Below, one piece after another: positions 3,015-32,894 of a stretch of 32,894 nucleotides of DNA; position 1 is the first letter of the stretch, and each line of letters starts with the position of its first letter. Source of the DNA: a bacterium (GTDB taxonomy: Bacteria; UBP15; UBA6099; JBFMBQ01). A program made the translations under genes and the position numbers. The notes beneath the pieces are model-generated. The model did no database searches. It was not told the DNA's origin and saw only the letters and a program-made list of their open reading frames with translations. Location: the NCBI GenBank assembly GCA_040755115.1, contig JBFMBQ010000512.1:4515-37408 (forward strand). Reading direction: 5' to 3'.

Positions 3015-5486
3015 CTATTTAAAATTGATTGTGATCTCATCCCCCGTATATGTAACGATTCGGTCGGGTTTTTCTACCGCCTGGACTCCAACGCCGCGGT
3101 TTTCGGTAACCAATATGATGTTGAAGGTTCTTTTTGTCAGCATGCCGGGGAATGAACCTATGCGTTGACCGATGGTAAGTGATCGGGCTGATTCGTTCCA
3201 CTTCAACGGTATGATGGAATAGACACCTTTTTCGTAATTGTAATTGTCGCCCTCGTCCTCGTATATGATGAAGTCTGCGTCGGCGCCCGGATAGATGCGC
3301 AACTCTATCGGATCGGCTGGCTTTTCCGCCGCATACTGGAGTTCAGGTCCCATAGGAATAATAGAACCGCCCTTCACATAGAGCGGCATAATGTCTATCG
3401 GTGCAGGCGCTTCAATCGTCTGTCCGCCAGCAAAGAACTTTCCTGTCCAGAAATCATACCAGCCGGCTGCCGCTTCTGGTAAATATACGCTGCGGCTCCT
3501 TATCTCTTTATTGATGATTATTCTCCCGTCTATCTTCGCATCATGTTTTTCCTTCAGCATTTTCTGTGAAGGCGTCAGCCGTTCAATATGATACATCGGT
3601 TTCGTAACAGGATTTACAAGTATTGCAGGACCGAACATGAACTGGTCATCGATGCCGAGTATGTTTGGATCGCTTCTGAAATCAAACGGCAGTCCCCTCA
3701 TAATCGTGTAGCCTTCACTCGTAACCTTCCACGCCAGCGAATATATATACGGCAGCATGCGGTAGCGCAGGATGTCAAATTTTTCAAGCGTGTCATAAGC
3801 CCATGTTTTCGGCTCGCCGAATTGCCAGATTTCCCGCGGCGTGCTTGACCCGTGTGAACGGAAAATCGGGCAGAATGCGCCGTATTGAAACCACCTCACA
3901 TACAATTCACGAAATTCGTCATTTTTGCGTCCGCTCCCGTATTTTACGGTAAATCCTCCTATGTCCGTCGTCCAGTAAGGAATCCCCGCCATGCTGAAAT
4001 TCAACCCAGCGGAAATCTGTTTCCTGAATACATCCCAGGTGGATAAAATATCTCCCGACCAGGTTACCGCCGCATGCCGCTGCTGACCTGCAAACGCTGA
4101 ACGCGCAAGAATAAAAACGCGCTTGTCCGATGTGGTTTCACGCTGCCCTTCATAGACACCTTTAGTCGTCATCAGCGAATACGCATTCAAATATCTTGCC
4201 GTTGAACCAAGCGCAGTTCGTTCAGCGCTCTTCATCATTTCTATCGTATGCTCTTGTGTCAGCGCATGGTCAAATTCCGGCTCGGTTACATCCAACCACC
4301 AGGCATCCATCCCCTTTGAGAAAAATCCCTTCTTGATATGATCCCAGTAAATTTTTCGTGCATCGCCGTTGAAAGCGTCGTAAGTGTAACTGCCGTGACT
4401 GTCGGGGACGGAATAAAGATAACCCTTGTTTTTCATTTCCTTATATATCGGAGTTTCAGGTCCGAACTTCGTCCAGACGGAAATCATCACATGCAAGTGG
4501 TATTTCTCATGCAGTTCGCGGATCATACCTTCAGGATCGGGGAAATTTTTTCTGTCAAAATCCATAGCATTCCAGCCGAGGTCGCCCCAGTATTGCCAGT
4601 CCTGCACAATGCTGTCCAGAGGAAGTCGCCGCTCCCTGTATTCCTTTGCGACACCTGTCAATTCATCCTGCGTTTTATATCTTTCCTTACACTGCCAGTA
4701 TCCGTAAGCCCATTTCCCGAACATCGGCGCATATCCCGTGAGTTCCCTGTAGCCGGCAATTATGTCGTCCGCATCAGGTCCATAGATGAAGTAATAATCA
4801 ATGGCATCCGCTACCTCCGACCAGAAATAAGTCCCGTCTTCACCGTCATGAAATTTTGTTAATGAATAGTTGTCCCACAGTATGCCGTACCCGTTCGTTG
4901 AAAGCAGAAATGGAACGACGGCGACCGTATTCGCCTGTGCGAGCAGGACATCGTGTCCGCGGTAATTCATTATCCCCTCCTGATATTGCCCCAACCCATA
5001 AAGCCCTTCATCTGCGGATAAAACGAAACTCTGTTCTGCATGATAAACATCTTCACCAAGGACATCGGCTTCGGTCATTGTTTTTCCGCCCGCTGCCGGC
5101 TCCCGCAGGACGACAACACCGTCCTCGTAGTAGAAAGTTATCGCGCCGGTTTTCATTGATACTTCTGCCTGAATCTTGTTAGTTGTAAGTGATACGAAGT
5201 CTTTGTCTTCCTTCAAGTCCCATTTCACTGAAGGGCGAGGTTTATCAACAATCATCAGGCTTTTTCTCTCAGGAAATTTATCTATGGGAGTATAAACAAT
5301 GTGCAGGATATTCTCAGCGCAGACCTCTATTTTCATTTTCCCTGGCTGCATTTTCAAAATCAGTCCATTTTCAGCGCGCTCGTATTCGCTCACCGGTATC
5401 GCCTCACCACAGCAGACAGGAATCATAGCCAACAACAGAAAGGGGACTGCTTTACAAAATTGTTTTAATCTTATTATAGTTTTCAA
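3015..5486 (-). CDS. Glycoside hydrolase family 31 (alpha-glucosidase/alpha-xylosidase-like), secreted
   Basis: KWAYGYWQCKERYKTQDEL, VQDWQYW, WWLDVTEPE and TTDIGGF are GH31 catalytic-domain motifs. The N-terminus has a signal-like segment (KAVPFLLLAMIPVCCGE). The start is TTG at 5486 and is uncertain. Confidence 0.85.
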   Translation of the reverse strand: MKTIIRLKQFCKAVPFLLLAMIPVCCGEAIPVSEYERAENGLILKMQPGKMKIEVCAENILHIVYTPIDKFPERKSLMIVDKPRPSVKWDLKEDKDFVSLTTNKIQAEVSMKTGAITFYYEDGVVVLREPAAGGKTMTEADVLGEDVYHAEQSFVLSADEGLYGLGQYQEGIMNYRGHDVLLAQANTVAVVPFLLSTNGYGILWDNYSLTKFHDGEDGTYFWSEVADAIDYYFIYGPDADDIIAGYRELTGYAPMFGKWAYGYWQCKERYKTQDELTGVAKEYRERRLPLDSIVQDWQYWGDLGWNAMDFDRKNFPDPEGMIRELHEKYHLHVMISVWTKFGPETPIYKEMKNKGYLYSVPDSHGSYTYDAFNGDARKIYWDHIKKGFFSKGMDAWWLDVTEPEFDHALTQEHTIEMMKSAERTALGSTARYLNAYSLMTTKGVYEGQRETTSDKRVFILARSAFAGQQRHAAVTWSGDILSTWDVFRKQISAGLNFSMAGIPYWTTDIGGFTVKYGSGRKNDEFRELYVRWFQYGAFCPIFRSHGSSTPREIWQFGEPKTWAYDTLEKFDILRYRMLPYIYSLAWKVTSEGYTIMRGLPFDFRSDPNILGIDDQFMFGPAILVNPVTKPMYHIERLTPSQKMLKEKHDAKIDGRIIINKEIRSRSVYLPEAAAGWYDFWTGKFFAGGQTIEAPAPIDIMPLYVKGGSIIPMGPELQYAAEKPADPIELRIYPGADADFIIYEDEGDNYNYEKGVYSIIPLKWNESARSLTIGQRIGSFPGMLTKRTFNIILVTENRGVGVQAVEKPDRIVTYTGDEITINFK

Positions 5487-5501
5487 TGGTTTAACTTTGA
5501 T

Positions 5502-5529
5502 ATTATATAGAGGCTTCCTTATTTTTCAA
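5502..5529 (-). promoter_or_regulatory. Candidate sigma70-type promoter upstream of the GH31 gene
   Basis: The minus strand reads TTGAAA-N16-TATAAT. It would give a very short leader before the TTG start, so confidence is low. Confidence 0.3.
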
Positions 5530-5571
5530 CAATTAATACCGAGTTGCAATCAAACGATTACTAACAAATGT

Positions 5572-5610
5572 AAAAAAATGAGATTGCCACGGCGCTGCGC
5601 GCCTCGCAAT
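5572..5610 (-). terminator. Rho-independent terminator-like hairpin downstream of the 213-aa ORF
   Basis: The minus strand reads attgcgaggcgc-gca-gcgccgtggcaat followed by ctcattttttt. It is a GC-rich imperfect palindrome followed by a T7 run. Confidence 0.55.
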
Positions 5611-5688
5611 GACAGTTTTTGAACGCACCTTAGTATAAAAAACATGATGTTGTTAATAATTTTTTCATCATTTCATGGCAATAAATAA

Positions 5689-5718
5689 TGTAGGGGCGCA
5701 TGGCAGTGCGTCCCTACA
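5689..5718. repeat. REP-like palindrome, single unit (TGTAGGGGCGCA...TGCGTCCCTACA)
   Basis: tgtaggggcgcatggcagtgcgtccctaca. It has the same TGTAGGG/CCCTACA termini as the other three loci. Confidence 0.7.
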
Positions 5719-5787
5719 TCTGTGTAATATATAGATTATCTTTTATCGCTGAAAGTTATTAATTTAAGAATTGCATAATATCTAATA

Positions 5788-6429
5788 TCACTTGAGTATA
5801 AACTCACCAATCAATTTCTCAGCATAATCAGATGATGCACCCAATTTCATTAATGTTTCTTTTATTCTATCTATATTATGTTTACTCTTTATATCGGTGT
5901 CTTTCTCCATCAATTTCATCATATCCAATTCATCTTGCTTTGTCTGGATCGCACTTCTGTCTGGCGACATAATTGATGATATTTTTACGGCTATCAGATT
6001 ATTTTTTTCTAAATAGTAGATCTTCTCATCGCCCAATTTATCTGCGACTTTATTATCCAGAAGAAAATGTTGCTCTGGCATAATTTCTAATAAATGCAGA
6101 TTCACTTTACCATATATAACTTGAGCGGCAGTGCTGGAATACTCATTAATTACTGCTCCTGAAGTTCTGAACCTGTCAATGAGTTTCTCATAATATCCCT
6201 TGCGTATCATCAAATCAATATCAGCGGTTGCCCTCGGAGTTGTATAATAACTCACAGCCCAGGCGCCAATGACCACATAATTATCGCCAATGGTATCATT
6301 AACAATACCAATTGCGCTCTTGTATGAAGCCCCATTAACTTCCATCAACATATCAACCATTTCAGATGGTGACATTCCATCTATGATAAAATCGGCATAT
6401 TCATGAGTTAAGTTTTTTACTTTCAGCAC
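5788..6429 (-). CDS. Hypothetical protein, possible nucleotidyltransferase-fold (MNT/AbiEii-like) protein
   Basis: The ORF is AT-rich. The segment VVIGAWAVSYYTTPRATADIDLMI resembles the G-x-A-x(n)-R-x-T-x-D-x-D signature of minimal nucleotidyltransferases. The GTG start is uncertain and the function call is weak. Confidence 0.4.
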   Translation of the reverse strand: MLKVKNLTHEYADFIIDGMSPSEMVDMLMEVNGASYKSAIGIVNDTIGDNYVVIGAWAVSYYTTPRATADIDLMIRKGYYEKLIDRFRTSGAVINEYSSTAAQVIYGKVNLHLLEIMPEQHFLLDNKVADKLGDEKIYYLEKNNLIAVKISSIMSPDRSAIQTKQDELDMMKLMEKDTDIKSKHNIDRIKETLMKLGASSDYAEKLIGEFILK

Positions 6430-6482
6430 GAATTGTCCCGAACATTAATTGGCAATCATTTTTCGTATAAATTCTACTGTAA

Positions 6483-6510
6483 ATTATAGCCGGTGCTCTA
6501 CAAACATCAA
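6483..6510 (-). promoter_or_regulatory. Candidate sigma70-type promoter for the 213-aa ORF
   Basis: The minus strand reads TTGATG-N16-TATAAT, about 50 nt upstream of the ORF start. Confidence 0.4.
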
Positions 6511-6524
6511 GGAAAATAAAAAAA

Positions 6525-6589
6525 CCCGGCAGCGTCTGACTCTCCCACAGGGTCGCCCCTGAAGTACCATTATGCGCTGGAGGGCTTAA
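6525..6589 (-). pseudogene. 5S rRNA fragment (3' ~65 nt only), a duplicate of the 3' part of the intact 5S at 7227-7342
   Basis: cccggcagcgtctgactctcccacagggtcgcccctgaagtaccattatgcgctggagggcttaa matches 7227-7290 except for one substitution and a small indel. The preceding aaataaaaaaa is shared too. Similarity stops abruptly at 6590. Confidence 0.85.
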
Positions 6590-6692
6590 AACAGATGATG
6601 ACAGGGAAGAAATTGAGAGGATCTACGGCATAAAATGATGAATACCTCTATCATTACAAGTGCAATAACTCCACGACTTCATTTCTTCGGCA

Positions 6693-6914
6693 CTATCGCG
6701 CAATCTGGTAAATTACTGGCTTATACCTGGGTGGAGGTATAGATTTGCCCGCCGCACGGGCAGCTTCAATCCAAGCCTTCTTGGCGATTTCCAGTTCCGT
6801 CAGAGCGCGCTCAGGTGTTTCACCAAACGCAGAGCAGGCATCCAAATCCGGAATATCGGCGATGTATCCACCGTCCTCCTTACTGTAGAAGATGTTGATG
6901 TGATAATCGCTCAT
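6693..6914 (-). CDS. hicB: HicB family antitoxin
   Basis: A 73-aa protein starting MSDYHINIFYSKEDGGYIADIPDLDACSAFGETPERAL, typical of the UPF0150/HicB N-terminal fold. Its start lies 2 nt after the hicA stop. Confidence 0.8.
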   Translation of the reverse strand: MSDYHINIFYSKEDGGYIADIPDLDACSAFGETPERALTELEIAKKAWIEAARAAGKSIPPPRYKPVIYQIAR

Positions 6915-6916
6915 AG

Positions 6917-7168
6917 TTAGTCCTCCAGGCGAAGATTATATCTTTCAACCAATCGTAAAACCTGACGAAGTTGATAGGGTTTCGCCTCACCCTTTACTTC
7001 CTGAAGATTGACCTGCTCTTGGATTCCATTATGAATGAAGATGTGGTGGCTGCCGCTAATGCGGTCAAGTTTGAAACCGAATCCTTCAAGCAGGTTAACA
7101 GCGTCTTTGAAAGATACATTTTTGAACGAGCCTTTTGCGAGTTTCTTTACAAGTTTATCACGGCGCAT
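6917..7168 (-). CDS. hicA: HicA family mRNA-interferase toxin
   Basis: An 83-aa protein with the GSHHIF motif and the size and charge typical of the HicA/YcfA family. It lies upstream of hicB in the canonical toxin-first order. An extended -10-like TGGTATACT sits at 7183-7191 on the minus strand. Confidence 0.8.
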   Translation of the reverse strand: MRRDKLVKKLAKGSFKNVSFKDAVNLLEGFGFKLDRISGSHHIFIHNGIQEQVNLQEVKGEAKPYQLRQVLRLVERYNLRLED

Positions 7169-7226
7169 ACTTAGATTATTTTAGTATACCAATTTTTATA
7201 ACATCCTTATAGTATAAATAAAAAAA

Positions 7227-7342
<116 letters not shown>

Positions 7343-7759: not shown

Positions 7760-8215
7760 ATTCTATGAATTTTCTCTAATATTTTTTTAACTCTTTCTGT
7801 TTTCCCATCCATTATATCCGCTTTCTTTCAGTTATTGTGAATTCACCTCCTTTCTGTTGTTTTTTCAGCAACTCTTCACAAGTGCACAGGCGAGAAGCGG
7901 AAAGCAGATATAATTAACTAATGATTACAAAAGGGTCAAGCGATTGACCAATTAGTACCGGTCTGCTCAACGCATTACTGCGCTTACACACCCGGCCTAT
8001 CAACCTGATAATCTTTCAGGGGTCTCTCGCATCTTGCGATGCATGGAGATCTCTTCTTGGGATGGGTTTCGCACTTAGATGCTTTCAGTGCTTATCCCGA
8101 CCGGACATGGCTACCCTGCAATGCCGCTGGCGCGACAACAGGTACACCAGAGGTCCGTCCATCCAGGTCCTCTCGTACTATGGACAGACTCCCTCAAATC
8201 TCCAGCGCCCACGAA

Positions 8216-8300
<85 letters not shown>

Positions 8301-8303
8301 GTC

Positions 8304-8391
<88 letters not shown>

Positions 8392-8568
8392 GGTAACTTT
8401 TATCCATTGAGCGATGGCCCTTCCACGCAGCGCCACCGGATCACTAGGTCCTGCTTTCGCATCTGCTCGACCCGTCGGTCTCACAGTCAAGCACCCTTAT
8501 GCCCTTACACTCAACGCACGATTTCCGACCGTGCTGAGGGTACCTTTGAATGCCTCCGTTACAGTTTG

Positions 8569-8601
<33 letters not shown>

Positions 8602-8822
8602 ACACTGTTCCCCCGCCGGCTAACGGCGCAGGGTTAGAACTCCGACTTACCCAGGGTGGTATTTCAAGGTTGGCTCCAGGGGACCTGACGACCCCCCTTC
8701 AAAGCCTCCCACCTATCCTACACAGGACAAACCAAAGTTCAGTGCCAGGCTACAGTAAAGCTCCACGGGGTCTTTCCGTCCTTTCGTGGGTAACCCGCAT
8801 CTTCACGGGTAGTGCAGTTTCG

Positions 8823-8901
<79 letters not shown>

Positions 8902-9604
8902 CTAATCTGTTACTTTGTAACTCTGGTTTCCCAGAGCGGACTGGTCATTTCTGCCAGTCTCCCTGTGTCGCCACAGGGTACGGACTGTATCTTCACCCTT
9001 TCAGGATGTCCGGCGTTCAGTCTCTGAGGATGCTAAAAACCGTGATATTTTTCTCCTGTTCATAGTTTGGGCGATTTCGGCTATCTCCTTAATACCTTCC
9101 AATGTCTGATGCTTACCTTCTTTCATCATCTTAACAACCCGTACAAACTTCTGAAAATCATCCTTCTTCGCGGTTCGCAATGGATTTTCCAAGAAAAAAG
9201 GAATTATCTTGTCCTGCAAATCTTTCAAACTGCGGACGCAATACCTATAAAGGTGTTCTTTATGAGTATCATGTCTACGGTTTATAAAGATATTCCCACA
9301 ACTAAAAAATTCTTTAAGTAATTCTAAAGATTGCCGACTTTTTTCGCCCTGTGTAACTACAAACTCGGGAAATACCTGCCAGCCTATAGATGTTGAAGCC
9401 TTCTGAATTGTTACAGAAAAGCATCCCTCTCCATCTATAAAGCCAACTATCCAGCCTGTGGTTTTTAGCCTTTCCTGCTGATTGTCTGCACCCATCACAT
9501 TGTTACCTCAAAATTTTTCAAGGTAGTGTGGGATACTAACCAGATGTTCCAGCATACAGCCGGATGCGCTTATATCATTATTGATATAAAGGGCAACTTA
9601 TGTT
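8902..9604 (-). mobile_element. Group I intron in 23S rRNA at the position equivalent to E. coli U1931 (L1931)
   Basis: A 703-nt insertion between ...AACGGTCCTAAGGT and AGCGAAATTCC.... The 5' exon ends in U and the intron ends in G. Core elements: P-like GGCTGTATGCTGGAA (9547-9561), Q-like AATCAGCAGG (9474-9483), R-like TCAGAGACTGAA (9016-9027) and S-like AAGATACAGTCC (8982-8993). Confidence 0.85.
9001..9498 (-). CDS. LAGLIDADG homing endonuclease (single-motif type) encoded in the L1931 intron
   Basis: A 165-aa protein with the motif WIVGFIDGEGCF. It is AT-rich relative to the rRNA exons. Its 5' end overlaps the Q element and its 3' end overlaps the R element of the intron. Confidence 0.85.
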   Translation of the reverse strand: MMGADNQQERLKTTGWIVGFIDGEGCFSVTIQKASTSIGWQVFPEFVVTQGEKSRQSLELLKEFFSCGNIFINRRHDTHKEHLYRYCVRSLKDLQDKIIPFFLENPLRTAKKDDFQKFVRVVKMMKEGKHQTLEGIKEIAEIAQTMNRRKISRFLASSETERRTS

Positions 9605-9607
9605 ACC

Positions 9608-10162
9608 TTAGGACCGTTCGTTGATGTTAACTTCCGGTTTACCGGAAGACCGGACTATATCATCATCCAATCTGTTGAAATCAGATGTCTGGCGTATAGT
9701 CTCTGAGGATTCCTGAAACTTCTTAAGTATCTTCCCTTCGCTGTACCTGCGCTTGCCGCCGTCGTTCATCTCACGCCGTATTTCAAGAATTTTCCTTATC
9801 CCTTCTTCTGTGAGATGCTCCCCTTTTTGGATCATCTCAGCCGCCTTGCAGAACTTTGAGAAATCACGCTTCTTCTTCGCGGATAGAAAACGGTATTTCT
9901 TGAAGAACGGGATTACTTTCTCCCAAAGAGCATTGAAGTTATTTACCTCGTAATACCAGACGCCGTCTGGTCTGCTTCTCAATGTCCCGCAGCCTAAATG
10001 GCGTTTATACAGCGCGAGGATAACCTTGTCCCTTTGTGAGATATTGAAACACAGGGAGACTTTCCACGGCGTTTTGTAATCTGCGCGGGGTCTTAAGGAA
10101 ATATTGAAACTTCCTTCTCCGTCAGCGAAGCCTGCCAGATAATAACCTATCTCTGGTCTCAT
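9608..10162 (-). CDS. LAGLIDADG homing endonuclease (single-motif type) encoded in the L1917 intron
   Basis: A 184-aa protein with the motif YLAGFADGEGSF. The ORF runs through the intron 3' end and its TAA stop (9608-9610) lies inside the 14-nt micro-exon. Confidence 0.85.
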   Translation of the reverse strand: MRPEIGYYLAGFADGEGSFNISLRPRADYKTPWKVSLCFNISQRDKVILALYKRHLGCGTLRSRPDGVWYYEVNNFNALWEKVIPFFKKYRFLSAKKKRDFSKFCKAAEMIQKGEHLTEEGIRKILEIRREMNDGGKRRYSEGKILKKFQESSETIRQTSDFNRLDDDIVRSSGKPEVNINERS

Positions 10163-10309
10163 GGCTGACTCCCTTCTTCAGGTCTTTCCTGCTGATTGTC
10201 CCTATCTGACAGATTGTTACGACCCGTCCCTTGATATAACGGATGTACTGTCAGCCTGACAGGATTTTCCAGCATATAGCCAGATTTTATAACTACTGTG
10301 GTCCAAACA
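9619..10309 (-). mobile_element. Group I intron in 23S rRNA at the position equivalent to E. coli U1917 (L1917)
   Basis: A 691-nt insertion between ...GCCGTAACTAT and AACGGTCC.... The 5' exon ends in U and the intron ends in G. Core elements: P-like GGCTATATGCTGGAA (10267-10281), Q-like AATCAGCAGG (10188-10197), R-like TCAGAGACTATA (9695-9706) and S-like ATGATATAGTCC (9652-9663). Confidence 0.85.
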
Positions 10310-10929
10310 ATAGTTACGGCCGCCGTTCACTGGGGCTTCGGTCGTGGGCTTCGCCCCCCGAAAGGGGCTGACTCACTTCCTTAACCTTCCAGCACCGGGC
10401 AGGCGTCAGTCTCTATACATCGGCTTTCGCCTTAGCAGAGACCTGTGTTTTTGCTAAACAGTCGCCTGGGCCTCTTTACTGCGGCCCCCTCGGGCTAAGC
10501 AGCAGGAGTTAACCTGCCCTCTGCCCTACCGGGGCACCCCTTCTCCCGAAGTTACGGGGCGATTTTGCCTAGTTCCTTAACGAGGGTTCTCTCGCTCGCC
10601 TTAGGATATTCTCCTCGCCTACCTGTGTCGGTTTACGGTACGGTCACCTGTGCTCCTCCTTAGAGGTTTTTCCTGGCAGTATGAGTGCGGTCAGTTCGCT
10701 TTATCCGAAGATGCCGCTCCTCCTTCCCCTCAGAGTTGAATGGGCGCATGCATTTTCACGCACCCCTCCTACAGAGTTGGAACACACACTTCCATCCGTG
10801 TGATGACCTGCCCTCCTGCGTTACCCCATCAGTGCAAGCGTTGCACAGGTGGTGCTGGAATATTAACCAGCTAGCCATCGCCTACGCCTCTCGGCCTCGG
10901 CTTAGGACCGACTGACCCTGGGCGGACGA

Positions 10930-10960
<31 letters not shown>

Positions 10961-12468
10961 GATGAGATTCTCACTCATCTCTCGCTACTCGTACCGGCAT
11001 TCTCACTTCTATCCAGTCCACCAGTCCTTGCGGTCTGGCTTCACTCCACGATAGAACGCTCCCCTACCACTCCGCTCGCCGCCGCAGCGGCAAGACGAAG
11101 TCCGTGGCTTCGGTGTCAGGCTTAAGCCCCGTTACATTTTAGGCGCAGAGCCACTTGACCAGTGAGCTATTACGCACTCTTTAAATGGTGGCTGCTTCTA
11201 AGCCAACATCCTGGTTGTCTCTGTAATTCAACATCCTTCTCCACTTAGCCTGACTTAGGGACCTTAGCCGACGGTCTGGGCTGTTTCCCTCTCGACTACG
11301 GAGCTTATCCCCCGCAGTCTCACTCCCAGGGTCTCACCTGCGGTATTCGGAGTTTGATTGGGTTTGGTAACCGGTGAAGGCCCCTAGTCCATTCAGTGCT
11401 CTACCTCCGCAGGCTAAATTCCTGAGGCTGCCCTTAAAGGCATTTCGGGGAGAACCAGCTATAACCAGGCTCGGTTGGCTTTTCACCGCTATCCACAACT
11501 CATCCAAGCCCTTTTCAACGGACACTGGTTCGGACCTCCACATGGTCTTACCCATGTTTCATCCTGGTCATGGATGGATCGCCTGGCTTCGGGTCTATAG
11601 CGCACAACTGGGTCGCCCTGTTCAGACTCGCTTTCGCTCCGGCTCCGGGTTGTAACCCCTTAACCTTGCTGCGCACCATAACTCGCCGGTTCATTCTACA
11701 AAAGGCACGCTGTCAGGCATTCCGTGCGCGCCGAAACGCACATGGCATAGCCCTCCAACGGTTTGTAGGCATGCGGTTTCAGGTTCTATTTCACTCCCCT
11801 AACAGGGGTTCTTTTCGCCTTTCCCTCACGGTACTTGTCCACTATCGGTCACCAGGTAGTATTTAGCCTTGGAGGGTGGTCCCCCCAGTTTCCCAAGGGA
11901 TTTCCCGTGTCCCATGGTACTTAGGAACAGATGCCAGAGCCATTCCCCTTTCGTGCACGGGACTGTCACCCTCTATGGTGTCACTTTCCAGAGACTTGCA
12001 CTAAAGGAACGGTTTGTAACTCTGCCGCCCGGCCACAGCCGAACGCGCATCTGCCCTGCAACCCCGCAGCGACAACGCCTGTGGGCTTGACATCGCCACG
12101 GTTTAGGCTTCTCCCCGTTCGCTCGCCACTACTAAGGGAATCTCGGTTGATTTCTCTTATGCGGGGTACTGAGATGTTTCACTTCCCCCACTTCGCCTCC
12201 ACACCCTATTTTATTCAGGTGCGGATGACGGGGCATTACCCCCGCCGGGTTTCCCCATTCGGAGACCTACGGATCTAAGGATGCTCGCTCCTCCCCGTAG
12301 ATTATCGCAGCCTGCCGCGTCCTTCGTCGCCTCCCAGTGCCAAGGCATCCACCGCATGCCCTTGCTCGCTTGACCCTCATCTTTTCACTAAGATCAAAAT
12401 CTGCCTACCCACTTCTCTAGCCTATGCACTTGTCAAGGTTCGCCGGCTTTAAGCCATTTTATTCCGAT

Positions 12469-12635: not shown

Positions 12636-12903
12636 TACAATTAAAAAAATTTTTTTTTGACACAGAATAACTTTTATAAACAGGCAATTGAATGAATTAA
12701 AAACTTTGGTTTCGTTTTTTGCTTTCGTTCTGTCCGCGGCAGGATAAGGCGACAGATATTGAATCTCATTATTGTTTATTAATTTATTAATTGGTGCAAT
12801 ATATGCTTCCGATACATGTTAAAATAAGCGGGCGGGAAAACCGGCTCTCGTTGAGCGGTTGCGGGGCTCTAATCGCAGTTCGGGGTTCGCAAATCAAATA
12901 ATA

Positions 12904-17455: not shown

Positions 17456-18457
17456 TCACTTTCTCATTTCCCTCTTAATCTTTAATTCTGACACTCGACT
17501 CATTATTCGTTTTCTATCCTGCAATGTGTTCCTTTCCCAAAAAACCCCGTCGTCGTAGCCCTGTATTGTCTTGTCTTTCTCGGCAAGATGCAGCCGCTTT
17601 TCTGCAAGGCAGCAGTAAATTTCGTCAATCTCAACGCCAGCGTATCGCCTGCCGAGTTTTTTCGCAACGACGGATGTTGTGCCGGAGCCTGAAAACGGGT
17701 CAAAAACGAAATCGCCTTCATTGGAACTTGCGAGAATGATTTTTGCAAGGAGTTTTTCAGGTTTCTGTGTCGGGTGGTCTGTGTTTTCAGGCATTGACCA
17801 GAAGGGAATGGTCATGTCGTTCCAGATGTTAGACGGATGCGTCAGGCGGAAGCCGCCATCATCGCTCTTCTCCCAGTCTTTGGGCATCCTGTTTTCGTCT
17901 GTATAAGGTGCAATTACCCTTCGCTTAAGTTTCACCGCATCAATGTTGAAAGTGTATTTATCCGACTTCGTGCAGAACCATATATCTTCCGAACAGTTCT
18001 TCCAGTTTGACTTTGCCCCTCTGCCCTTCTCGCGTTCCCAGGTGATGCGGTTTCGGATGATCAGATGATGTCTTTCAAGGACTCTGTGAATTGCGGCTGA
18101 CGAGCGCCAATCGCCGCAGATATACACCGATGCGGTGGGCTTGAGAACATTTATAAGTTTTGGAAACCATTTTTCAAACCATTCTTCATATTCCACTGTC
18201 GTCATTTCTTTGAACTGATTTGAACTGAATGATTTTGTGATGTTGTAAGGTGGATCAATAAAGAGAAGATCAACGAAATTTGCGGGGAGAAAATTCAGTA
18301 TTTCAAAAAGATTCTGGCAGATTGTTTTGTTTTCAATATCTCTGGTTTCAACTTTGCGGGTAAGTTTAATCAGTTTTCTGCCGAAAAATTTCTTCTCTGC
18401 GGGCGTGAGCGAGACAGTCCTGTTTCGCGGCGCGCGGGTTTTTTCTTTATTGTTCAT
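17456..18457 (-). CDS. Site-specific DNA methyltransferase, beta-class N6-adenine/N4-cytosine family (DPPY type), no cognate nuclease nearby
   Basis: Motif IV LLFIDPPYNI precedes motif I FDPFSGSGTTSVVA, the beta-class permutation of the N6_N4 MTase family. HPTQKPEKLL is also present. Confidence 0.85.
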   Translation of the reverse strand: MNNKEKTRAPRNRTVSLTPAEKKFFGRKLIKLTRKVETRDIENKTICQNLFEILNFLPANFVDLLFIDPPYNITKSFSSNQFKEMTTVEYEEWFEKWFPKLINVLKPTASVYICGDWRSSAAIHRVLERHHLIIRNRITWEREKGRGAKSNWKNCSEDIWFCTKSDKYTFNIDAVKLKRRVIAPYTDENRMPKDWEKSDDGGFRLTHPSNIWNDMTIPFWSMPENTDHPTQKPEKLLAKIILASSNEGDFVFDPFSGSGTTSVVAKKLGRRYAGVEIDEIYCCLAEKRLHLAEKDKTIQGYDDGVFWERNTLQDRKRIMSRVSELKIKREMRK

Positions 18458-27843: not shown

Positions 27844-28677
27844 TTATTTCCCACTCTGTATATATACATCTCCGCTCACCGATTTGATCGCGATTTCCAC
27901 ATCGCCCTCACCGATTGTGCCTTCCATCAGCCTTCTGCCTGCCTCATTTGTGATTTGCAGCGGCAGATCGGATGTTATTTCCCCGCTGACTGTAAAAACT
28001 CTGACCGTTCCCTGAAATGCTGTCGGAAGCGCAATGTCGGTGTCTCCACTGACAGTTTTAAAGGAGATATTTTGTGCGATGTGCGCAGTTCCGTCTAATC
28101 GTATATCGCCGCTTACTGTTTCAGCGACCAATTTGCCTTCGCAGTCCTTCAGGAAAACTCCGCCGCTTACGGAGCGCACTTCCGCATCACCACCCGCTTC
28201 CTCAAGGACGACATCACCGCTTACTGCTCCAGCCTTTATTGAACTTTTCATCTTGCGCACTTTAATATTCCCGGAGACGGTCTTCAGGACGAGGGGTGCT
28301 GCCGCAGGGGCGGTTATGGTGTAGTCAATCCGCCCGCTCAATCTGCGCCAGCGGGGCGGTCGGTGTGTAACGATGAGTATTTCATCATGACGGCTTGTGA
28401 TAACCATCTTGAGATGTGCTGACTCCCGACGCGACACAGTGAGCGATTCGGATGAAACCGTCTTCAGCCCTGTTACAGTTAACTCATTATCTTTGCCTGC
28501 CTCAACCTTAATATCGCCTGCAATCTCTTCAACAACGATTTGCTGCCCCTCGTGCCACATAAGGTTTTTCTCCTCGCTTCGGGCATACTTATTGTCAAGT
28601 TTCATTGAAACGCACGAGGGCATCAGGATTACAAAACACAAGAAAAGCGTAACGGTTCTTTCAAAATAACTGTTCAT
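27844..28677 (-). CDS. DUF4097 family beta-strand repeat protein (putative adhesin/lipoprotein)
   Basis: It carries repeated VSG[DG][IV]x[LVI] strands (VSGNIKV, VSGDVVL, VSGGVFL, VSGDIRL, VSGDTDI, VSGEITS, VSGDVYI). The N-terminus is signal-like and ends in PSC. Confidence 0.8.
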   Translation of the reverse strand: MNSYFERTVTLFLCFVILMPSCVSMKLDNKYARSEEKNLMWHEGQQIVVEEIAGDIKVEAGKDNELTVTGLKTVSSESLTVSRRESAHLKMVITSRHDEILIVTHRPPRWRRLSGRIDYTITAPAAAPLVLKTVSGNIKVRKMKSSIKAGAVSGDVVLEEAGGDAEVRSVSGGVFLKDCEGKLVAETVSGDIRLDGTAHIAQNISFKTVSGDTDIALPTAFQGTVRVFTVSGEITSDLPLQITNEAGRRLMEGTIGEGDVEIAIKSVSGDVYIQSGK

Positions 28678-29191
28678 TGCTATCTATATTATTGTGTTTT
28701 GTGCAAAAAGTGCAAAGCATATCCCACACATCTTTTATGTCAAGTAACTTCTTATGGTAAAACTCTGCGATGTCAGTGAAGATACCGAAAACGAGTTCTT
28801 CTTCAGAGTGGCGTTTCTCTACCTCTTTGAGCTGTTCAGGGAACAGATTCCACTGGGAAAGATGCGGTAGTCTTGCTTTCTGTGCGAGATAATCCCGTTC
28901 GGCGCGGTGCGTGTCAGGCATCCTGCCGGCAGCGTTTTTTGTTACGACACCGGATTGAATGAATTCCACGAGATGAAGAACATCATCGCCGACACCGCAG
29001 CCCCAGCACTTCCAGAATTGATTGCGCCGGTCTATGTGTAACGAATGGTGCGATACGCTGACGTGCCGCGGACAGTCAACGTGAATGACGTTGCCAGAAT
29101 CGTCGGTAATGCGGTCTGCGAGTAATTCTCTTGCGACTTCGGCAATGTCTATGTTTGTGATCTGTGAATAGTATTCCTTCGGATTATTCAT
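28661..29191 (-). CDS. CHC2 zinc-finger protein, N-terminal fragment of a DnaG-type/phage-type primase (no TOPRIM domain)
   Basis: CPRHVSVSHHSLHIDRRNQFWKCWGCGVGDDVLHLVEF matches the CHC2 primase zinc-finger pattern C-P-x-H-x(n)-S-L-x-I-x(n)-F-x-C-x-G-C-G-x-x-G-D. The ORF ends about 60 aa after the finger region and overlaps the DUF4097 start by 17 nt. Confidence 0.7.
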   Translation of the reverse strand: MNNPKEYYSQITNIDIAEVARELLADRITDDSGNVIHVDCPRHVSVSHHSLHIDRRNQFWKCWGCGVGDDVLHLVEFIQSGVVTKNAAGRMPDTHRAERDYLAQKARLPHLSQWNLFPEQLKEVEKRHSEEELVFGIFTDIAEFYHKKLLDIKDVWDMLCTFCTKHNNIDSNEQLF

Positions 29192-29212
29192 GGTTAGTTT
29201 ATTCCTTTATGC

Positions 29213-29253
29213 AAAAAGCCCGGCTCATGCGATTCCTCGCATGACTTCCGGAC
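29213..29253 (-). terminator. Rho-independent terminator-like hairpin downstream of the nucleotidyltransferase gene
   Basis: The minus strand reads gtccggaagtcatgcga-ggaa-tcgcatgagccgggc followed by ttttt. Confidence 0.5.
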
Positions 29254-29475
29254 TCGTGCATTCGATACCTGAAAACTTTTTCTTCAGGCTCGATTATTCA
29301 ATGCCTACAGGCTTATTCGCTATTTACCCTATCCCTTACCTGCCTCAATGGGAATCTACAGTTTGTTTTAATTTATGGTTATTGTTAAAATAAGAAGAAT
29401 TATACAAATAGGATTCCCTGAATTCTGGATTCCGAATACCTACCTCCTAACACCCGATTGGAGAGGTGCACACAA

Positions 29476-30228
29476 TTATCCGAAAAAAAAAGACAGCCTT
29501 TGTTCATAAGTCTGGACGGCATCATTCAGAGAATCTATGGTTCCGATATCGAACCATGTACCCTTGTGAACATACCCAAGGAGTCTTTTTTTTGCGACGA
29601 GCCATTGTATGAAATGTCCGATAGATTTGATCGTTTTTTCGTTCTCATTTATTGTCTTAAGATAGTCATGAGCGAATTCAATTGTTCCTTCAGTAAAAAT
29701 ATAGCATCCAGCGTCTATGTAATGGGATTGCGGGTGTTCTGGCTTCTCCGTGTATGTAATGATCTTCCTGTCTTCGTCCATTACAACAACACCATATTTC
29801 CTGGTGATCTTGTCGAGATCATCCATTTCATATAACGAAATTACAGATTCCTTTTTTTCTGCGAAAAAGTTCACGATGCTGTCCAGATTCCAGTCGAAAA
29901 GAGTATCTCCTAATATTATCATAAAATCCTCTATCAAATTGTCTTGTTTCGCGAAGAACAGTAGTTCATTTACTAGACCTGCTCCCGACATTGGAAAAAG
30001 CCGCAGAGGTTTTCCCCAGCGAAAACACTTCGACCAGTTCATGAAGTGAGAATTCTGATGTACATTTGTCAATAGAATTATTTCATCTATCTCTGACAGG
30101 ATTTCTATTTTTTCCATTATGTAGTTCAGTAATGGCTTGCCAACAACGGGGACAAGGGGTTTGGGAATGAATTTAGTAATAGGAAATAGTCTAGTTCCCA
30201 TGCCAGCTGCCGGTATGATAGCTTTCAT
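29476..30228 (-). CDS. Sugar-phosphate nucleotidyltransferase (RmlA/GalU-fold NTP_transferase family)
   Basis: MKAIIPAAGMGTRLFPITKFIPKPLVPVVGKPLL is the G-x-G-T-R-x(n)-K-P nucleotide-binding signature. The protein is 250 aa and AT-rich. Its start lies 34 nt downstream of the stop of the cyclase-radical SAM ORF. Confidence 0.8.
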   Translation of the reverse strand: MKAIIPAAGMGTRLFPITKFIPKPLVPVVGKPLLNYIMEKIEILSEIDEIILLTNVHQNSHFMNWSKCFRWGKPLRLFPMSGAGLVNELLFFAKQDNLIEDFMIILGDTLFDWNLDSIVNFFAEKKESVISLYEMDDLDKITRKYGVVVMDEDRKIITYTEKPEHPQSHYIDAGCYIFTEGTIEFAHDYLKTINENEKTIKSIGHFIQWLVAKKRLLGYVHKGTWFDIGTIDSLNDAVQTYEQRLSFFFG

Positions 30229-30262
30229 TCTTTAGCCTCAATTATTTCAGAAAGAAAGAACC

Positions 30263-32470
30263 TCAGATGAAATCTGGCACCCGGGATCTTGGAAAATACG
30301 GCTTCTCTATCTTATTTTTCAAAACCTTTTCCATGTTGATAATTTCTTGAATCATTTGTTGGTAATCAGCAATCCGGCAGTTGCATGTATAACTGGCTTT
30401 GCATATGTTTTTCACACTCAGATTCTGTATAATGTTTTTGTGCTCATTGCTGCCCCAGAAGTCACTGAGACTACTCTCGGAATTCATCCGATACTTTCCA
30501 ATTTCCATGTTTTGGGGATCGTTGTGATATCCGAAGCAAACAAACACCCCACCGTTGGGATCTATTACCGGACTAATGGGGTTCAACCAGCATCGGAATT
30601 TTTCCGGATAGGAAGTTCTTCTCACATCAATCTGTAGATCCTCATAACTGTTGTCGGAGGATTTCAGGGAGTATAATTTTTCCTCCATTTCTCTGATTTC
30701 CTCTTTTGAGGGTTCGACGGTATCCATACCTCGAATAGATTTGACCTTGATATGAGTAGCACCATAACTACGGGCTTTTTTAACGATGTCAATTATGCTG
30801 TCTTTATTCGTTTTTGTCATTAGAATTTTGACACCGATTGTTGTTCCAACAAGAGGTTGTCCTTTACAATAATTAGCGAGCTTACCAAGTCTTATGTAGA
30901 ACATCAATTCTTCTATGTTCCCTGTTTTCAAACCTTCAACGTAACTCAGTCTTATATAATCAAAAACGTTCGCTGACTCCTCCATGAGGTCATCCTCTAA
31001 GTACTTTCCGTTGGTGATTAGACCGAATTTCATACCACTTTTTTTCTTTTTAGATATTATGCTCAATAATTTTACAAAATCATGATGTTCCATCGGCTCG
31101 CCGCCGCCGGCGATTTCACAGGAAGTCAGTTCATTCAAGCCTGTTGTTGATTTATTCCTCAAATTATCGAGATCATTTAGGATGTGTGCGAATAAGTCAA
31201 CATTCATACTTACTCTATCCAGACCTCTAAAATCCTTATACATGCAATTCGGACACCGAAACGAACATATATATGTCGGGTAAATAATGACCTGTTTAGG
31301 AAGAGGCAACAACTCCGCATTTTGTTCATCGTGCATTACATTCCATATTCTTTTTGCATGATCCAGATAGAGTAATATGCGTTTTTTGGAATTCATCTGA
31401 TCTGTGAATTCCGCCGCATCCCACATTGAATTAAACTCTTCTGAAAAAGTCTTAAAATGTTCTGTGTCTTTTCCCTCCAGTAAGTATGTCGGGGTCTTGT
31501 CGCCGTGTGATGAATGTCCTAGGTAATGGTGCACATACATGACGCGGTCGTCTGATATCGTCATGGCACGAAACATTATCTGGTTCGTAACTTTATCAAC
31601 AATCATACCAAAGCAGCCATTTTTCTTCGCTTGGTCCTTTATATCTGAGATTATTTTCAAAGTAGAATGGATTTTATCTCTTAACTCAAAAGGTAACCAC
31701 CTATCGGTCTGAGAGAATTGTTGCAAGTAATTCTCATAAGGGTTCAAGAGCAGCACGCGTATCGTGCATCCTTTGTATAGAAGATTGTAAATAATATCTC
31801 TATGTTTTGTGAATATCGGGATCATGGAATGTCCCATTATGTCCAACTTATGTTTTGTGTTTTTGAAGAAATCTGTCCATTCGTCGACTTCAACTTCTCC
31901 CCTTATGGAATACATTTCAACGATTCCGAACTTTTTTATTTCATATACTGTTACTTGGTGATCAAATCCTTTGAACTGTTGCTGTCCCACAAGTTTGAAT
32001 TTTTTTCTGAGTGCAGGTTTCAAATCGTTATATAAATCTTCTGACGCAAATATCTGGTCATCTTTTGATATATCCAGAATCCTCTTTGTCAAGCTGAGGT
32101 CCAATGAGAATTCGGGGTCGCCTTTTTTATCCAGTTCGGCTCTCCCTCTATGTAGTCCAATATTGACAGTGATCTTATTTCCGTTCTCGATATTTAAATC
32201 GATGTTACGATTGCGGGTTGCAAGCCGTCGCTGTATTTCCAGAGCGCATCTGACACAATCGTTCGAATCTTGGAACCATGCTAAAAAGGCATCTCCTTCT
32301 GTACCCTTACCTTGTCCATTATATTCTTTTACTAAATTTATCATAAACTCTCTGATGGTTAAAACGAGTTTCTTGCCTCTCACATCACCAATTTTCCTGT
32401 ACATTACCGTAGAATCTTTAATGTCTGCCATCATAAAGGCAAATTTTTTTCTTCTACCTATTTCCCTCAA
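30263..32470 (-). CDS. Fusion protein: class III adenylate/guanylate-cyclase-like domain + unrecognised middle domain + radical SAM domain with SPASM/twitch-like C-terminal cysteines
   Basis: The cyclase motifs are in order: FAFMMADIKDST, TEGDAFLAWF, VNIGLHRGRAEL, IFASEDLYNDL and FKGFDHQVTVYEI (aa 9-180). The radical SAM part has YPTYICSFRCPNC (C402/C406/C409, nt 31244-31267), AGGGEP and GLITNG. The C-terminus has C627-X12-G-X4-C645 and C690-X5-C696-X-C698. The TTG start has AAGGAAG 6 nt upstream, and no ATG precedes the first cyclase motif. Confidence 0.75.
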   Translation of the reverse strand: MREIGRRKKFAFMMADIKDSTVMYRKIGDVRGKKLVLTIREFMINLVKEYNGQGKGTEGDAFLAWFQDSNDCVRCALEIQRRLATRNRNIDLNIENGNKITVNIGLHRGRAELDKKGDPEFSLDLSLTKRILDISKDDQIFASEDLYNDLKPALRKKFKLVGQQQFKGFDHQVTVYEIKKFGIVEMYSIRGEVEVDEWTDFFKNTKHKLDIMGHSMIPIFTKHRDIIYNLLYKGCTIRVLLLNPYENYLQQFSQTDRWLPFELRDKIHSTLKIISDIKDQAKKNGCFGMIVDKVTNQIMFRAMTISDDRVMYVHHYLGHSSHGDKTPTYLLEGKDTEHFKTFSEEFNSMWDAAEFTDQMNSKKRILLYLDHAKRIWNVMHDEQNAELLPLPKQVIIYPTYICSFRCPNCMYKDFRGLDRVSMNVDLFAHILNDLDNLRNKSTTGLNELTSCEIAGGGEPMEHHDFVKLLSIISKKKKSGMKFGLITNGKYLEDDLMEESANVFDYIRLSYVEGLKTGNIEELMFYIRLGKLANYCKGQPLVGTTIGVKILMTKTNKDSIIDIVKKARSYGATHIKVKSIRGMDTVEPSKEEIREMEEKLYSLKSSDNSYEDLQIDVRRTSYPEKFRCWLNPISPVIDPNGGVFVCFGYHNDPQNMEIGKYRMNSESSLSDFWGSNEHKNIIQNLSVKNICKASYTCNCRIADYQQMIQEIINMEKVLKNKIEKPYFPRSRVPDFI

Positions 32471-32565
32471 AACGGCTTCCTTTGTGTATATTTATTATTT
32501 TGAAATATTACCGTGTAATCTTCAGAAAATCCAGCCCCATTTCGAATGATGGTTAGTTATAGTAT

Positions 32566-32751
32566 TCACACCTCCGGCAAATCCTTATACTGCCACTTCT
32601 TAGTTGAGTTCATCTCGATGTGTGTGGCTTTGCCGTTTTCAAACTTTATTATAACACACCCATAGAACCTTTCGTAGAACAATTTTGAAAGAAATCTAAA
32701 TAGTTTTTCCATCGGTCTTGTTACCATTATATCACTTGATTTCGTTTCCAT
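32566..32751 (-). CDS. Small protein, DUF2292/YezD-like (61 aa from ATG 32751)
   Basis: FYGCVIIKFENGKATHIEMNSTKKW resembles the YezD pattern (F/Y)G-S-(V/I)-x-(I/L)-x-(V/I)-x-(D/N)-G-K-(V/I)-x-x-(I/V)-E. ATG 32751 has GGAGGG 5 nt upstream and overlaps the helicase stop by 20 nt. The upstream part of the listed 97-aa ORF is the helicase gene read in another frame. Confidence 0.45.
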   Translation of the reverse strand: METKSSDIMVTRPMEKLFRFLSKLFYERFYGCVIIKFENGKATHIEMNSTKKWQYKDLPEV

Positions 32752-32893
32752 TGAAACCCTCCAGACCCAAGAATGTTTTTCGTTTCTCTGTAAACTCGCG
32801 TGCAGCGCAGTTCCGTATACCCCACCGATCACCGATGATGATAGCGGTCTGTTTGGCACGTGTGACGGCGGTATAGAACAAGTTGCGATGGTG
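32732..32893 (-). CDS. C-terminal end of a RecD-like / superfamily 1 DNA helicase (5' part outside the window)
   Basis: The minus frame from 32893 reads HHRNLFYTAVTRAKQTAIIIGDRWGIRNCAAREFTEKRKTFLGLEGFNGNEIK*. YTAVTRAK is SF1 helicase motif VI as found in RecD2/TraA-type helicases. The segment is too short to appear in the ORF track. Confidence 0.6.
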   Translation of the reverse strand, partial: HHRNLFYTAVTRAKQTAIIIGDRWGIRNCAAREFTEKRKTFLGLEGFNGNEIK

Positions 32894-32894
32894 C

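Follow-up and report, generated by a model that had tools for sequence, protein, structure and literature searches.

The window considered here is a stretch of 32,894 nucleotides of metagenome-assembled bacterial DNA (lineage UBP15; GenBank assembly GCA_040755115.1, contig JBFMBQ010000512.1, positions 4,515 to 37,408 of the forward strand), close to the end of which an AT-rich block is lodged between a helicase gene and a primase gene. The segment 29274-32575 of this window is very probably foreign DNA, inserted at a variable-cargo hotspot of a phage replication module, and encodes two proteins: a 735-residue protein that combines a class III nucleotidyl cyclase domain, a phospholipase D (PLD)-like domain and a radical SAM domain, and a nucleotidyltransferase of the NTP_transferase family. 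The cargo is best understood as a horizontally acquired accessory, a so-called "moron", located at the helicase-primase hotspot and having an immune role, a combined statement to which a probability of about 0.55 is given. Taken separately, the immune function of the cargo would have close to, and at most, an even chance of being correct.

Along the minus strand, the final 4.2 kb of the window contain successively the 3' end of the helicase gene, a small open reading frame (ORF), the 735-residue ORF, the NTP_transferase gene and an ORF with a CHC2 zinc ribbon. The small ORF and the 735-residue ORF are separated by 95 nt, the 735-residue ORF and the NTP_transferase gene by 34 nt, and 284 non-coding bases occur between the NTP_transferase gene and the CHC2 ORF. 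The gene layout on the minus strand and the 95-nt and 34-nt gaps had been given correctly in a previous sequence-only reading of the window. The CHC2 protein was used to scan metagenomes, which yielded five loci with 70-77% identical homologues, and the minus strand of the window was compared with them by blastn and base-level alignment. The relatives discussed below are L038, L039, L040, L041 and L053. The features needed for the discussion are the following.

32732-32894, minus strand, running beyond the window: 3' end of a RecD2-like superfamily 1 helicase gene of the phage backbone, with a UvrD_C_2 match.
32566-32751, minus strand, extending to 32859 in its longest form: small conserved backbone ORF, with 73-77% identical ORFs at the same place in L038 and L039.
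29274-32575, minus strand: inserted cargo segment, 3302 bp, 38.4% guanine plus cytosine (GC), very probably foreign, delimited by alignment with L039.
30263-32470, minus strand: ORF of the 735-residue multidomain protein, with a TTG start and an AAGGAAG ribosome-binding site.
31937-32446, minus strand: N-terminal class III nucleotidyl cyclase domain, residues 9-178, matching Pfam Guanylate_cyc and the Ma1120 structure.
31415-31924, minus strand: middle PLD-like domain, DUF5919-like, residues ~183-352, recognized from an AlphaFold2 (AF2) model and Foldseek.
30338-31300, minus strand: radical SAM domain and C-terminal SPASM/twitch-like auxiliary-cluster region, residues ~391-711, recognized from Pfam Radical_SAM and invariant cysteines.
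29476-30228, minus strand: NTP_transferase of the sugar-1-phosphate nucleotidylyltransferase type, 250 residues, matching PF00483 over its full length.
29281-29309, minus strand: degenerate second copy (21/29) of a 29-nt backbone sequence, found by sliding the L039 junction sequence along the window and by alignment.
29209-29255, minus strand (hairpin 29216-29255): backbone hairpin and U-run resembling an intrinsic terminator, upstream of the primase start and outside the insert.
28715-29191, minus strand: first 159 codons of a phage primase gene of the DnaG type, encoding a CHC2 zinc ribbon (Zn_ribbon_DnaG match), within a 176-residue ORF that stops at 28661.
29190-29199, plus strand: copy 1 of the 10-mer ATGGTTAGTT, in conserved backbone, 74 nt outside the right junction and overlapping the primase ATG.
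32549-32558, plus strand: copy 2 of the 10-mer ATGGTTAGTT, inside the insert, 18 nt from the left junction.

The insertion is most directly documented by the empty site found in L039, in which the sequences that border the cargo in the window occur as contiguous flanks, window 32894-32576 corresponding to L039 424-742 and window 29273-28727 to L039 743-1291. The true junctions read from this alignment fall between 32575 and 32576 on the left and between 29273 and 29274 on the right, the extra DNA of the window amounting to 3302 bp. The helicase - small ORF - primase arrangement devoid of insert, which the sequence-only reading had envisaged, thus exists in L039. A different and unrelated AT-rich cargo, of 1.1 kb, occupies the site in L038, where homology with the window breaks at the identical left point, after ...GAYTTGCC in the final codons of the small ORF, and resumes just ahead of the hairpin. 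The cargo of L038 has a GC content of 37.8% as against 52%, compared with 38.4% for the insert of the window and 49-55% for the related backbones. Both the empty site and the alternative cargo bear out the earlier view of the AT-rich block as a foreign insertion in the helicase/primase module of a mobile element. The AT-richness itself is real, windowed GC values being of 38-41% over 29000-32500 for about 50% in the whole window, and only the figures of the earlier reading need correction: the contrast is that of an insert at 38.4% and the rest of the window at 50%, instead of 23-37% against 55%. The L038 cargo (1838-2954) consists of a single 330-residue ORF (1864-2856) with no match in Pfam, PHROG, PADLOC or the PDB; by eye, a stretch of this protein, "...EFGQDI...SAQVKKGE", recalls the Mrr-like PD-(D/E)xK nucleases, a putative likeness.

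In the three other loci, L040, L041 and L053, the last of which lies on a 133-kb viral contig of IMG/VR, the primase gene starts a few bases before the helicase gene ends, and the small ORF, the hairpin and the cargo are all absent. Because these more distant loci have an overlapping helicase and primase, the absence of cargo is taken as the older state. The helicase-primase junction thus appears as a site of nested acquisitions, having received first the small ORF together with the terminator, as in L039, and then a cargo between them, as in L038 and in the window. Accordingly, the cassette had been described as comprising one gene too many: the small ORF and the hairpin are present in L039 and belong to the backbone, and the cargo proper is made of two genes, the 735-residue ORF and NTP_transferase. 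Since the cargo follows the 3' end of the small ORF and precedes the backbone terminator, read-through from the helicase operon, ending at the existing terminator, would be possible. Promoter-like sites are no commoner than in shuffled sequences (14 as compared with 11.6), no strong terminator occurs other than that of the backbone, downstream of the insert, and Rfam (E <= 1) detected no known RNA element in the non-coding stretches of the cassette.

With respect to the mode of insertion, the Pfam scan of the ORFs in the insert revealed no gene other than those for the cyclase-radical SAM protein and NTP_transferase, with neither a transposase nor an integrase gene. No direct or inverted repeat occurs at the true junctions, the best inverted repeat (27 nt at 70%) being located away from them. 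A transposon or insertion element accompanied by a target-site duplication was rejected as a candidate for these reasons, namely the lack of repeats at the junctions, of a recombinase and of terminal inverted repeats. The 10-mer ATGGTTAGTT, considered by the sequence-only reading as a direct repeat flanking the cassette, is exact and occurs in exactly two copies, of which the second had been located correctly at 32549-32558 and the first, at 29190-29199, with an error of one position. The window, however, contains 421 exact direct 10-mer pairs spaced by 0.5-6 kb, 37 of them in its final 5 kb, and shuffled segments of the size of the two intergenic stretches have a 10-mer in common in 5% of the trials; therefore, the repeat is not significant. 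Its role as an insertion boundary or target-site duplication had to be abandoned, as it is at chance level and both copies are off the junctions, 18 nt inside the left one and 74 nt outside the right one. The sequence of L038 and L039 differs at the site of the first copy, where their primase has a TTG start. An excision between the two copies, which had been supposed to reconstitute the module, would remove the 82-nt conserved spacer and the terminator that the empty site of L039 keeps. Some caution is thus advisable with short repeats, a plausible 10-bp "target-site duplication" being coincidental here although the insertion is real.

An imperfect, tandem-like duplication of 29 nt flanks the right junction (window 29281-29309 and 29245-29273), both copies of which resemble the single copy of L039. 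The degenerate copy situated at the right end hints that the cargo was brought in from a different element along with part of the same site, and the duplication may represent a scar of the cargo transfer.

The backbone that harbors the cargo appears to be a phage replication module, of which the window contains a fragment only. The C-terminus of the helicase of the window displays 80-82% amino-acid identity to the helicase C-termini of L041 and L053, and the L041 helicase comprises the domains AAA_19, AAA_30, HHH_RecD2 and SH3_13. In addition, L041 encodes AAA_24, DUF669, an ERCC4 nuclease and a 1078-residue primase (Zn_ribbon_DnaG + DNAG_N + Toprim_2) that matches phrog_47 with E = 5e-109. 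The RecD2-like helicase of L041 (2272-5820) reaches 1182 residues, as compared to 761 residues in L053, owing to an intein (Intein_splicing + LAGLIDADG_3). The small ORF, 61 residues long from the ATG at 32751, with a conserved core starting at the Met at 32712, is a real conserved gene, judging from its counterparts in L038 and L039. It has no match in Pfam, NCBIfam or PHROG, and Pfam remains empty for the ORF and its two homologues even at E <= 10, which leaves the label "DUF2292-like" previously attached to it without foundation. A scan of IMG/VR with the small ORF gave one weak, unrelated match. The hairpin (29216-29255, minus strand) followed by a U-run is a strong one (-30.4 kcal/mol, z = -5.5), with a structure that is kept in L038 and L039; the terminator-like hairpin noticed earlier is therefore present, as a backbone terminator preceding the primase and not as a part of the cassette.

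The primase of the window shows 70-77% identity to residues 1-159 of the 1078-residue primases of L040, L041 and L053. Homology ends at ~28715, after residue 159, and is followed by 17 unrelated codons that overlap the start of a chromosomal DUF4097 gene (28661-28727); no further piece of the primase and no neighbouring phage gene was found elsewhere in the window. The truncated phage-like part represents either the remains of a decayed prophage or a chimera created by the assembly. As both flanks of the cassette consist of phage backbone, the conclusion of an insertion is independent of the choice between these two possibilities.

The 735-residue protein belongs to a rare and apparently undescribed family. 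A single-protein, word-indexed search retrieved no close homologue among 5.8 billion clustered proteins. An exhaustive HMMER search yielded ~55 cluster representatives at E < 1e-30, which align to residues ~180-711 only; the family comprises about 55 of the clusters formed at 50% identity from 15 billion proteins. No description of an architecture associating a head, a pseudo-PLD domain and a radical SAM domain was found in the literature, the coverage of which was incomplete. The radical SAM/SPASM genes reported by Kaur et al. 2020 (PMC7159879) correspond to separate peptide-modifying components of other systems.

In the alignment of 48 family members from which all counts of motifs and heads are taken, the C402-x3-C406-x2-C409 and G455-G456-G457-E458-P459 motifs are invariant, and so are four additional cysteines, C627, C645, C690 and C698, which are enough for one auxiliary cluster. 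The invariant Fe-S ligands and the GGGEP motif indicate that the protein is under selection as an enzyme. The auxiliary region would be of the SPASM/twitch-like type and carry one cluster, in line with its structural matches to SPASM/twitch enzymes. The window protein matches Pfam Radical_SAM; Pfam SPASM is recognized in 28 of the 48 members, the window protein remaining sub-threshold in this respect (TIGR04085, 13.8 bits for a cut-off of 27). In the AF2 model built from the family alignment, residues 180-722 are confidently predicted, with a predicted local distance difference test (pLDDT) score mostly >90. The Foldseek matches of the radical SAM domain comprise DesII at the top, then SuiB, CteB, PqqE, viperin, anSME, BlsE, BtrN and MoaA, so that its fold resembles enzymes acting on nucleotides or nucleoside diphosphate (NDP)-sugars (DesII, viperin, BlsE, MoaA) and peptide-modifying enzymes.

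The middle domain is likewise well predicted, its pLDDT exceeding 90 in the full-length model and averaging 82.5 in the domain-only model. Its best Foldseek matches are the non-catalytic effector domains of TrmBL2/TrmB, followed by FAM83 DUF1669, vaccinia F13, Zucchini and Nuc, and Pfam detects DUF5919 in 4 of the 48 members. Residues D307 and Y316 are invariant, and G213, L242, P244 and K266 are conserved in at least 90% of the sequences. A catalytic PLD nuclease or phosphodiesterase was discarded as a candidate, the fold being PLD-like yet devoid, in the family alignment, of the HxK(x)4D motif, i.e., a pseudo-PLD. PLD-fold domains typically dimerise, and the middle domain is probably a binding or dimerising module.

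The N-terminal heads linked to this core are exchangeable. Depending on the member, they consist of TIR_2 (20 of 48), TIR (5), ThsB_TIR (3), HD-CE (2), CHAT (2), Bacterial Death-like domain 3 (bDLD3; 1), Metallophos (1) or HD (1) domains, a cyclase head occurring in the window protein only (1 of 48); some other members have seemingly hydrophobic N-termini, as read from the alignment, with no Pfam domain. The TIR heads of the relatives match the ThsB, TIR-TM, SAVED_TIR and PDC-S66 models of PADLOC. TIR, CHAT and Death-like domains, as well as class III cyclases, for which a dimer is needed, become active or signal when they are brought together. The cyclase head of the window protein is a genuine class III domain, with a Pfam Guanylate_cyc score of 23.5 bits for a cut-off of 21.9 and a match to the minimal adenylyl cyclase Ma1120 of the PDB (E = 6e-14), the metal-binding D16 and D61 and the catalytic Arg being retained.

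The gene neighbourhoods of the family members seem to follow the pattern of mobile, conflict-associated genes, in a small sample. Transposases occur on both sides of the gene in L001 (Desulfospira joergensenii), a DUF3990 gene in L002, a tyrosine integrase gene in L003, genes for MNT/HEPN and a PLDc_2 protein in L045, genes for a TIR protein and a PIN toxin in L054, and genes for two large TIR proteins together with PhdYeFM/PIN in L056 and L057. The family genes of L001, L003 and L045 lie 10-15 GC points below their surroundings. In L056 (2985-11619), the TIR-headed member stands between TIR proteins of 664 and 693 residues, in a TIR-rich island beside PhdYeFM/PIN, and is flanked on each side by a 175-residue ORF. 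In L055 (860-5973), the metallophosphatase-headed member is directly followed by a separate radical SAM/SPASM gene and by a Gfo/Idh/MocA oxidoreductase gene; it is the only neighbourhood hinting at sugar-type chemistry. The scan of IMG/VR for the family returned generic radical SAM genes only, and a search for related loci with a subset of 10 sequences gave mostly generic SPASM enzymes along with 3-4 true members. The defence-cargo interpretation of the sequence-only reading thus appears plausible in view of the family architectures and neighbourhoods, as a proposed function only.

The second protein of the cargo is a full-length NTP_transferase of the sugar-1-phosphate nucleotidylyltransferase type (PF00483, E = 1.1e-38, 133.6 bits for a cut-off of 21.2, residues 2-243), with the N-terminal GxGTRLxP loop in the form AAGMGTRLFPIT. 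It falls well short of all the NCBIfam equivalog cut-offs (RmlA, GalU, GlmU etc.), the best score being that of rmlA_long with 103 bits for 320. Its best homologues are only 37% identical, two of them being surrounded by housekeeping genes in archaea, where no radical SAM gene accompanies them, and it matches phrog_3980, a phage family of unknown function, with E = 3.5e-33. The question raised earlier, whether homologues of the 735-residue gene always travel with an NTP_transferase gene, receives a negative answer, none of the 12 family loci having one. The pairing of the two genes would accordingly be specific to this cassette.

On this basis, the functioning of the system can be outlined in conditional terms. 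The PLD-like and radical SAM core would be the conserved engine of a rare immune-type family, in which the pseudo-PLD domain would bind a nucleotide or nucleic-acid cue and pair two chains. The radical SAM domain, predicted to be catalytically competent from its invariant ligands and SAM motif, would act on a nucleotide-linked substrate by a radical chemistry similar to that of viperin or DesII. Proximity would switch on the exchangeable head, two cyclase domains forming here an active dimer that makes a cyclic nucleotide, and NTP_transferase would be a lineage-specific add-on that supplies or further converts the nucleotide-linked substrate, e.g., an NDP-sugar. The net role of the cargo would be to shield the lysogen or host from competing phages via nucleotide poisoning and/or signalling. 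A bolder formulation, advanced here as a doubtful working proposal, is that of a new family of single-polypeptide immune enzymes, in which an active radical SAM/auxiliary-cluster domain and a pseudo-PLD sensor constitute the constant core driving interchangeable heads; in the version of the window, the core, the cyclase and the recruited NTP_transferase would together make a radical-modified cyclic nucleotide or NDP-sugar as an antiviral molecule or signal.

Several points weigh against an immune accessory. The host element is truncated and the cargo genes may be relics; recombinase, target-site duplication and terminal repeats are all missing from the insert. The core is not covered by any model of PADLOC 2.0, which gives only weak matches to pVip (4e-12) and PycC (7e-5), and the radical SAM fold finds matches among both peptide-modifying SPASM enzymes and enzymes that act on nucleotides. 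An Asp replaces the transition-state Asn in the cyclase, which is modelled by AF2 with low confidence (pLDDT < 50), with no cyclase homologues in the alignment. The family is a rare one, known here from only about 12 neighbourhoods, several of which lie on very short contigs (three were uninformative). Finally, NTP_transferase has no conserved link with the family, and a phage NDP-sugar pathway could be purely metabolic.

Another idea is that of a metabolic or modification moron, in which an NDP-sugar made by NTP_transferase would be converted by the radical SAM domain as DesII and BlsE do, for the hypermodification or glycosylation of phage DNA or for the conversion of a host surface glycan, the cyclase being a regulatory cAMP/cGMP module. 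It is in line with the position of DesII, a TDP-sugar deaminase, as the top structural match, next to BlsE and BtrN, with the full-length sugar-1-phosphate nucleotidylyltransferase type of an NTP_transferase that matches the phage family phrog_3980, with the best folds of the middle domain, which are the sugar-binding effector domains of TrmB and TrmBL2, and with L055, where a second radical SAM/SPASM gene and one for a Gfo/Idh/MocA oxidoreductase come after the family member. However, the TIR, CHAT, HD-CE and Death-like heads and the toxin-antitoxin and TIR neighbours are typical of conflict systems and not of glycan pathways, NTP_transferase occurs in 0 of the 12 family loci, and the Pfam scan of the ORFs revealed neither a glycosyltransferase nor a DNA-modification gene in the cassette, which makes this explanation unlikely, although it is the foremost of those competing with immunity. 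The cargo could also act on behalf of the phage alone, as an offensive or counter-defence module that manipulates host nucleotide pools or signalling, e.g., one that destroys or mimics immune second messengers or depletes NTPs, with no protection of the host. Its location within the early/replication gene block of a phage-type module, where co-transcription is possible, and the fact that all three enzymatic activities would use nucleotides, agree with such a function. The relatives of the core, however, reside in bacterial chromosomes near toxin-antitoxin genes, TIR genes and transposases and not in phages, the IMG/VR family scan brought up generic radical SAM genes only, and TIR, CHAT and Death-like heads are effectors of the host-immunity type; an offensive role is consequently quite improbable.

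The least probable of all is that no insertion took place, the cassette being ancestral, deleted in L039 and replaced in L038, or resulting from an assembly artefact. The missing target-site duplication, terminal repeats and recombinase would be understandable in that event, as would the primase abruptly cut at ~28715 next to chromosomal genes in a metagenome assembly. Yet the distant L040, L041 and L053 loci, with their overlapping helicase and primase, leave no room for a cargo, the cassette lies 11-15 GC points below the backbone and the unrelated cargo of L038 is similarly low, and a chimeric join would need two in-register events, both flanks being homologous to one phage module. An accessory acquired at the helicase-primase hotspot and having an immune role thus remains the preferred interpretation. 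The modular heads and neighbourhoods point to immunity, the constant part being predicted to be a radical SAM enzyme.

The cargo shares traits with several known systems. Like prokaryotic viperins (pVip), it brings a radical SAM enzyme into an antiviral or conflict context, and the 735-residue protein possesses both the CxxxCxxC cluster and the SAM-binding motif. The pVip model of PADLOC represents its best match in a defence database (4e-12, 44 bits, over a part of the model) and viperin structures are matched with E of about 3e-9; as in viperins, a chemistry directed at nucleotides would be plausible. In contrast, the protein scores 35.9 bits with the viperin model NF038283, the cut-off of which is 180, and its four-Cys auxiliary region, PLD-like domain and exchangeable head are absent from the pVip/viperin models of ~260-280 positions. 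Moreover, the SPASM-type enzymes DesII, SuiB, CteB and PqqE match its radical SAM domain better than viperin does. An identification as pVip was thus rejected on account of the score below the viperin cut-off and of the extra domains. Pycsar is evoked by a class III cyclase domain with catalytic residues in a putative immune protein and by a weak PycC match (20 bits). It differs in that the cyclase is here but one among the many heads that a radical SAM core can bear, and an identity with Pycsar was excluded because the cyclic-nucleotide-binding effector is missing, no such domain being found by Pfam in any ORF of 28661-32894.

Ophion (bioRxiv 10.1101/2025.09.30.679545), a three-gene system from Gammaproteobacteria that consists of the radical SAM protein OpnA, a PHP protein and a phosphoribosyltransferase (PRTase), and for which the authors propose transcription-blocking nucleotides, similarly associates a radical SAM enzyme related to, yet distinct from, viperin with an enzyme of nucleotide metabolism. 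In this comparison, made from the description of Ophion, the partners are not the same, PHP and PRTase there and NTP_transferase here, and the preprint mentions no PLD-like domain, cyclase or TIR head. The TIR defence proteins, e.g., Thoeris ThsB, TIR-SAVED and TIR-TM, resemble most of the family members by their N-terminal TIR, which implies the logic of a head activated by oligomerisation. A cyclase replaces the TIR in the window protein, however, and the PLD-like and radical SAM partner is absent from the models of these proteins. DesII and BlsE belong to the best structural matches of the radical SAM domain, and the adjacent gene could supply the NDP-sugar. Their identity to it is of only 12-15%, and they operate in antibiotic-sugar clusters with many tailoring genes, whereas the cargo of the window consists of two genes and the family relatives have no NTP_transferase (12 loci). 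Regarding the location, the variable-cargo hotspots of phages and satellites, e.g., those of P2/P4 (PMC9122126), equally present conserved flanks, differing and compositionally deviant cargo, and empty sites. The present hotspot differs from these by its phage lineage, the relatives of a 133-kb uncultivated virus, by its position between helicase and primase, and by a cargo whose anti-phage activity is putative.

Apart from this block, the window is mostly bacterial chromosome, with genes for GH2, GH31 and GH38 glycosidases, a 23S-5S rRNA pair, a DNA methylase, hemA, ccsA, an S8 peptidase and a DUF4097 protein. A second zone of low GC content (35-38%) extends over positions 5000-7000, between the GH31 gene and the 5S rRNA gene, and contains an ORF of 213 residues (5788-6429, minus strand) with no Pfam match. 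The 23S rRNA gene (7932-12375, minus strand) measures 4444 nt for a model of 2925 nt and thus accommodates ~1.5 kb of insertions; a LAGLIDADG_1 homing-endonuclease ORF located inside it (9608-10162, minus strand, E = 6e-21) suggests an intron with its homing endonuclease. The 5S rRNA lies at 7226-7342 (minus strand), and no 16S gene occurs upstream of the 23S gene within the window, where the GH38 gene starts at 12859. An N6/N4 DNA methyltransferase is encoded at 17456-18457 (minus strand, E = 3e-45), with no restriction-enzyme domain among the scanned neighbouring ORFs.

A cargo hotspot located between helicase and primase is thus documented in a large uncultivated phage lineage by an empty site and two unrelated AT-rich cargos, and such hotspots represent productive places to seek new genes of the conflict between phages and bacteria. 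If the immune role of the cargo is confirmed, radical-SAM-based antiviral chemistry would be wider than the viperins, and the product of the cyclase-radical SAM fusion could be a new nucleotide-derived molecule. Should the more specific proposal also turn out to be true, the family would constitute a new chemical branch of viperin-like immunity, borne as phage cargo.

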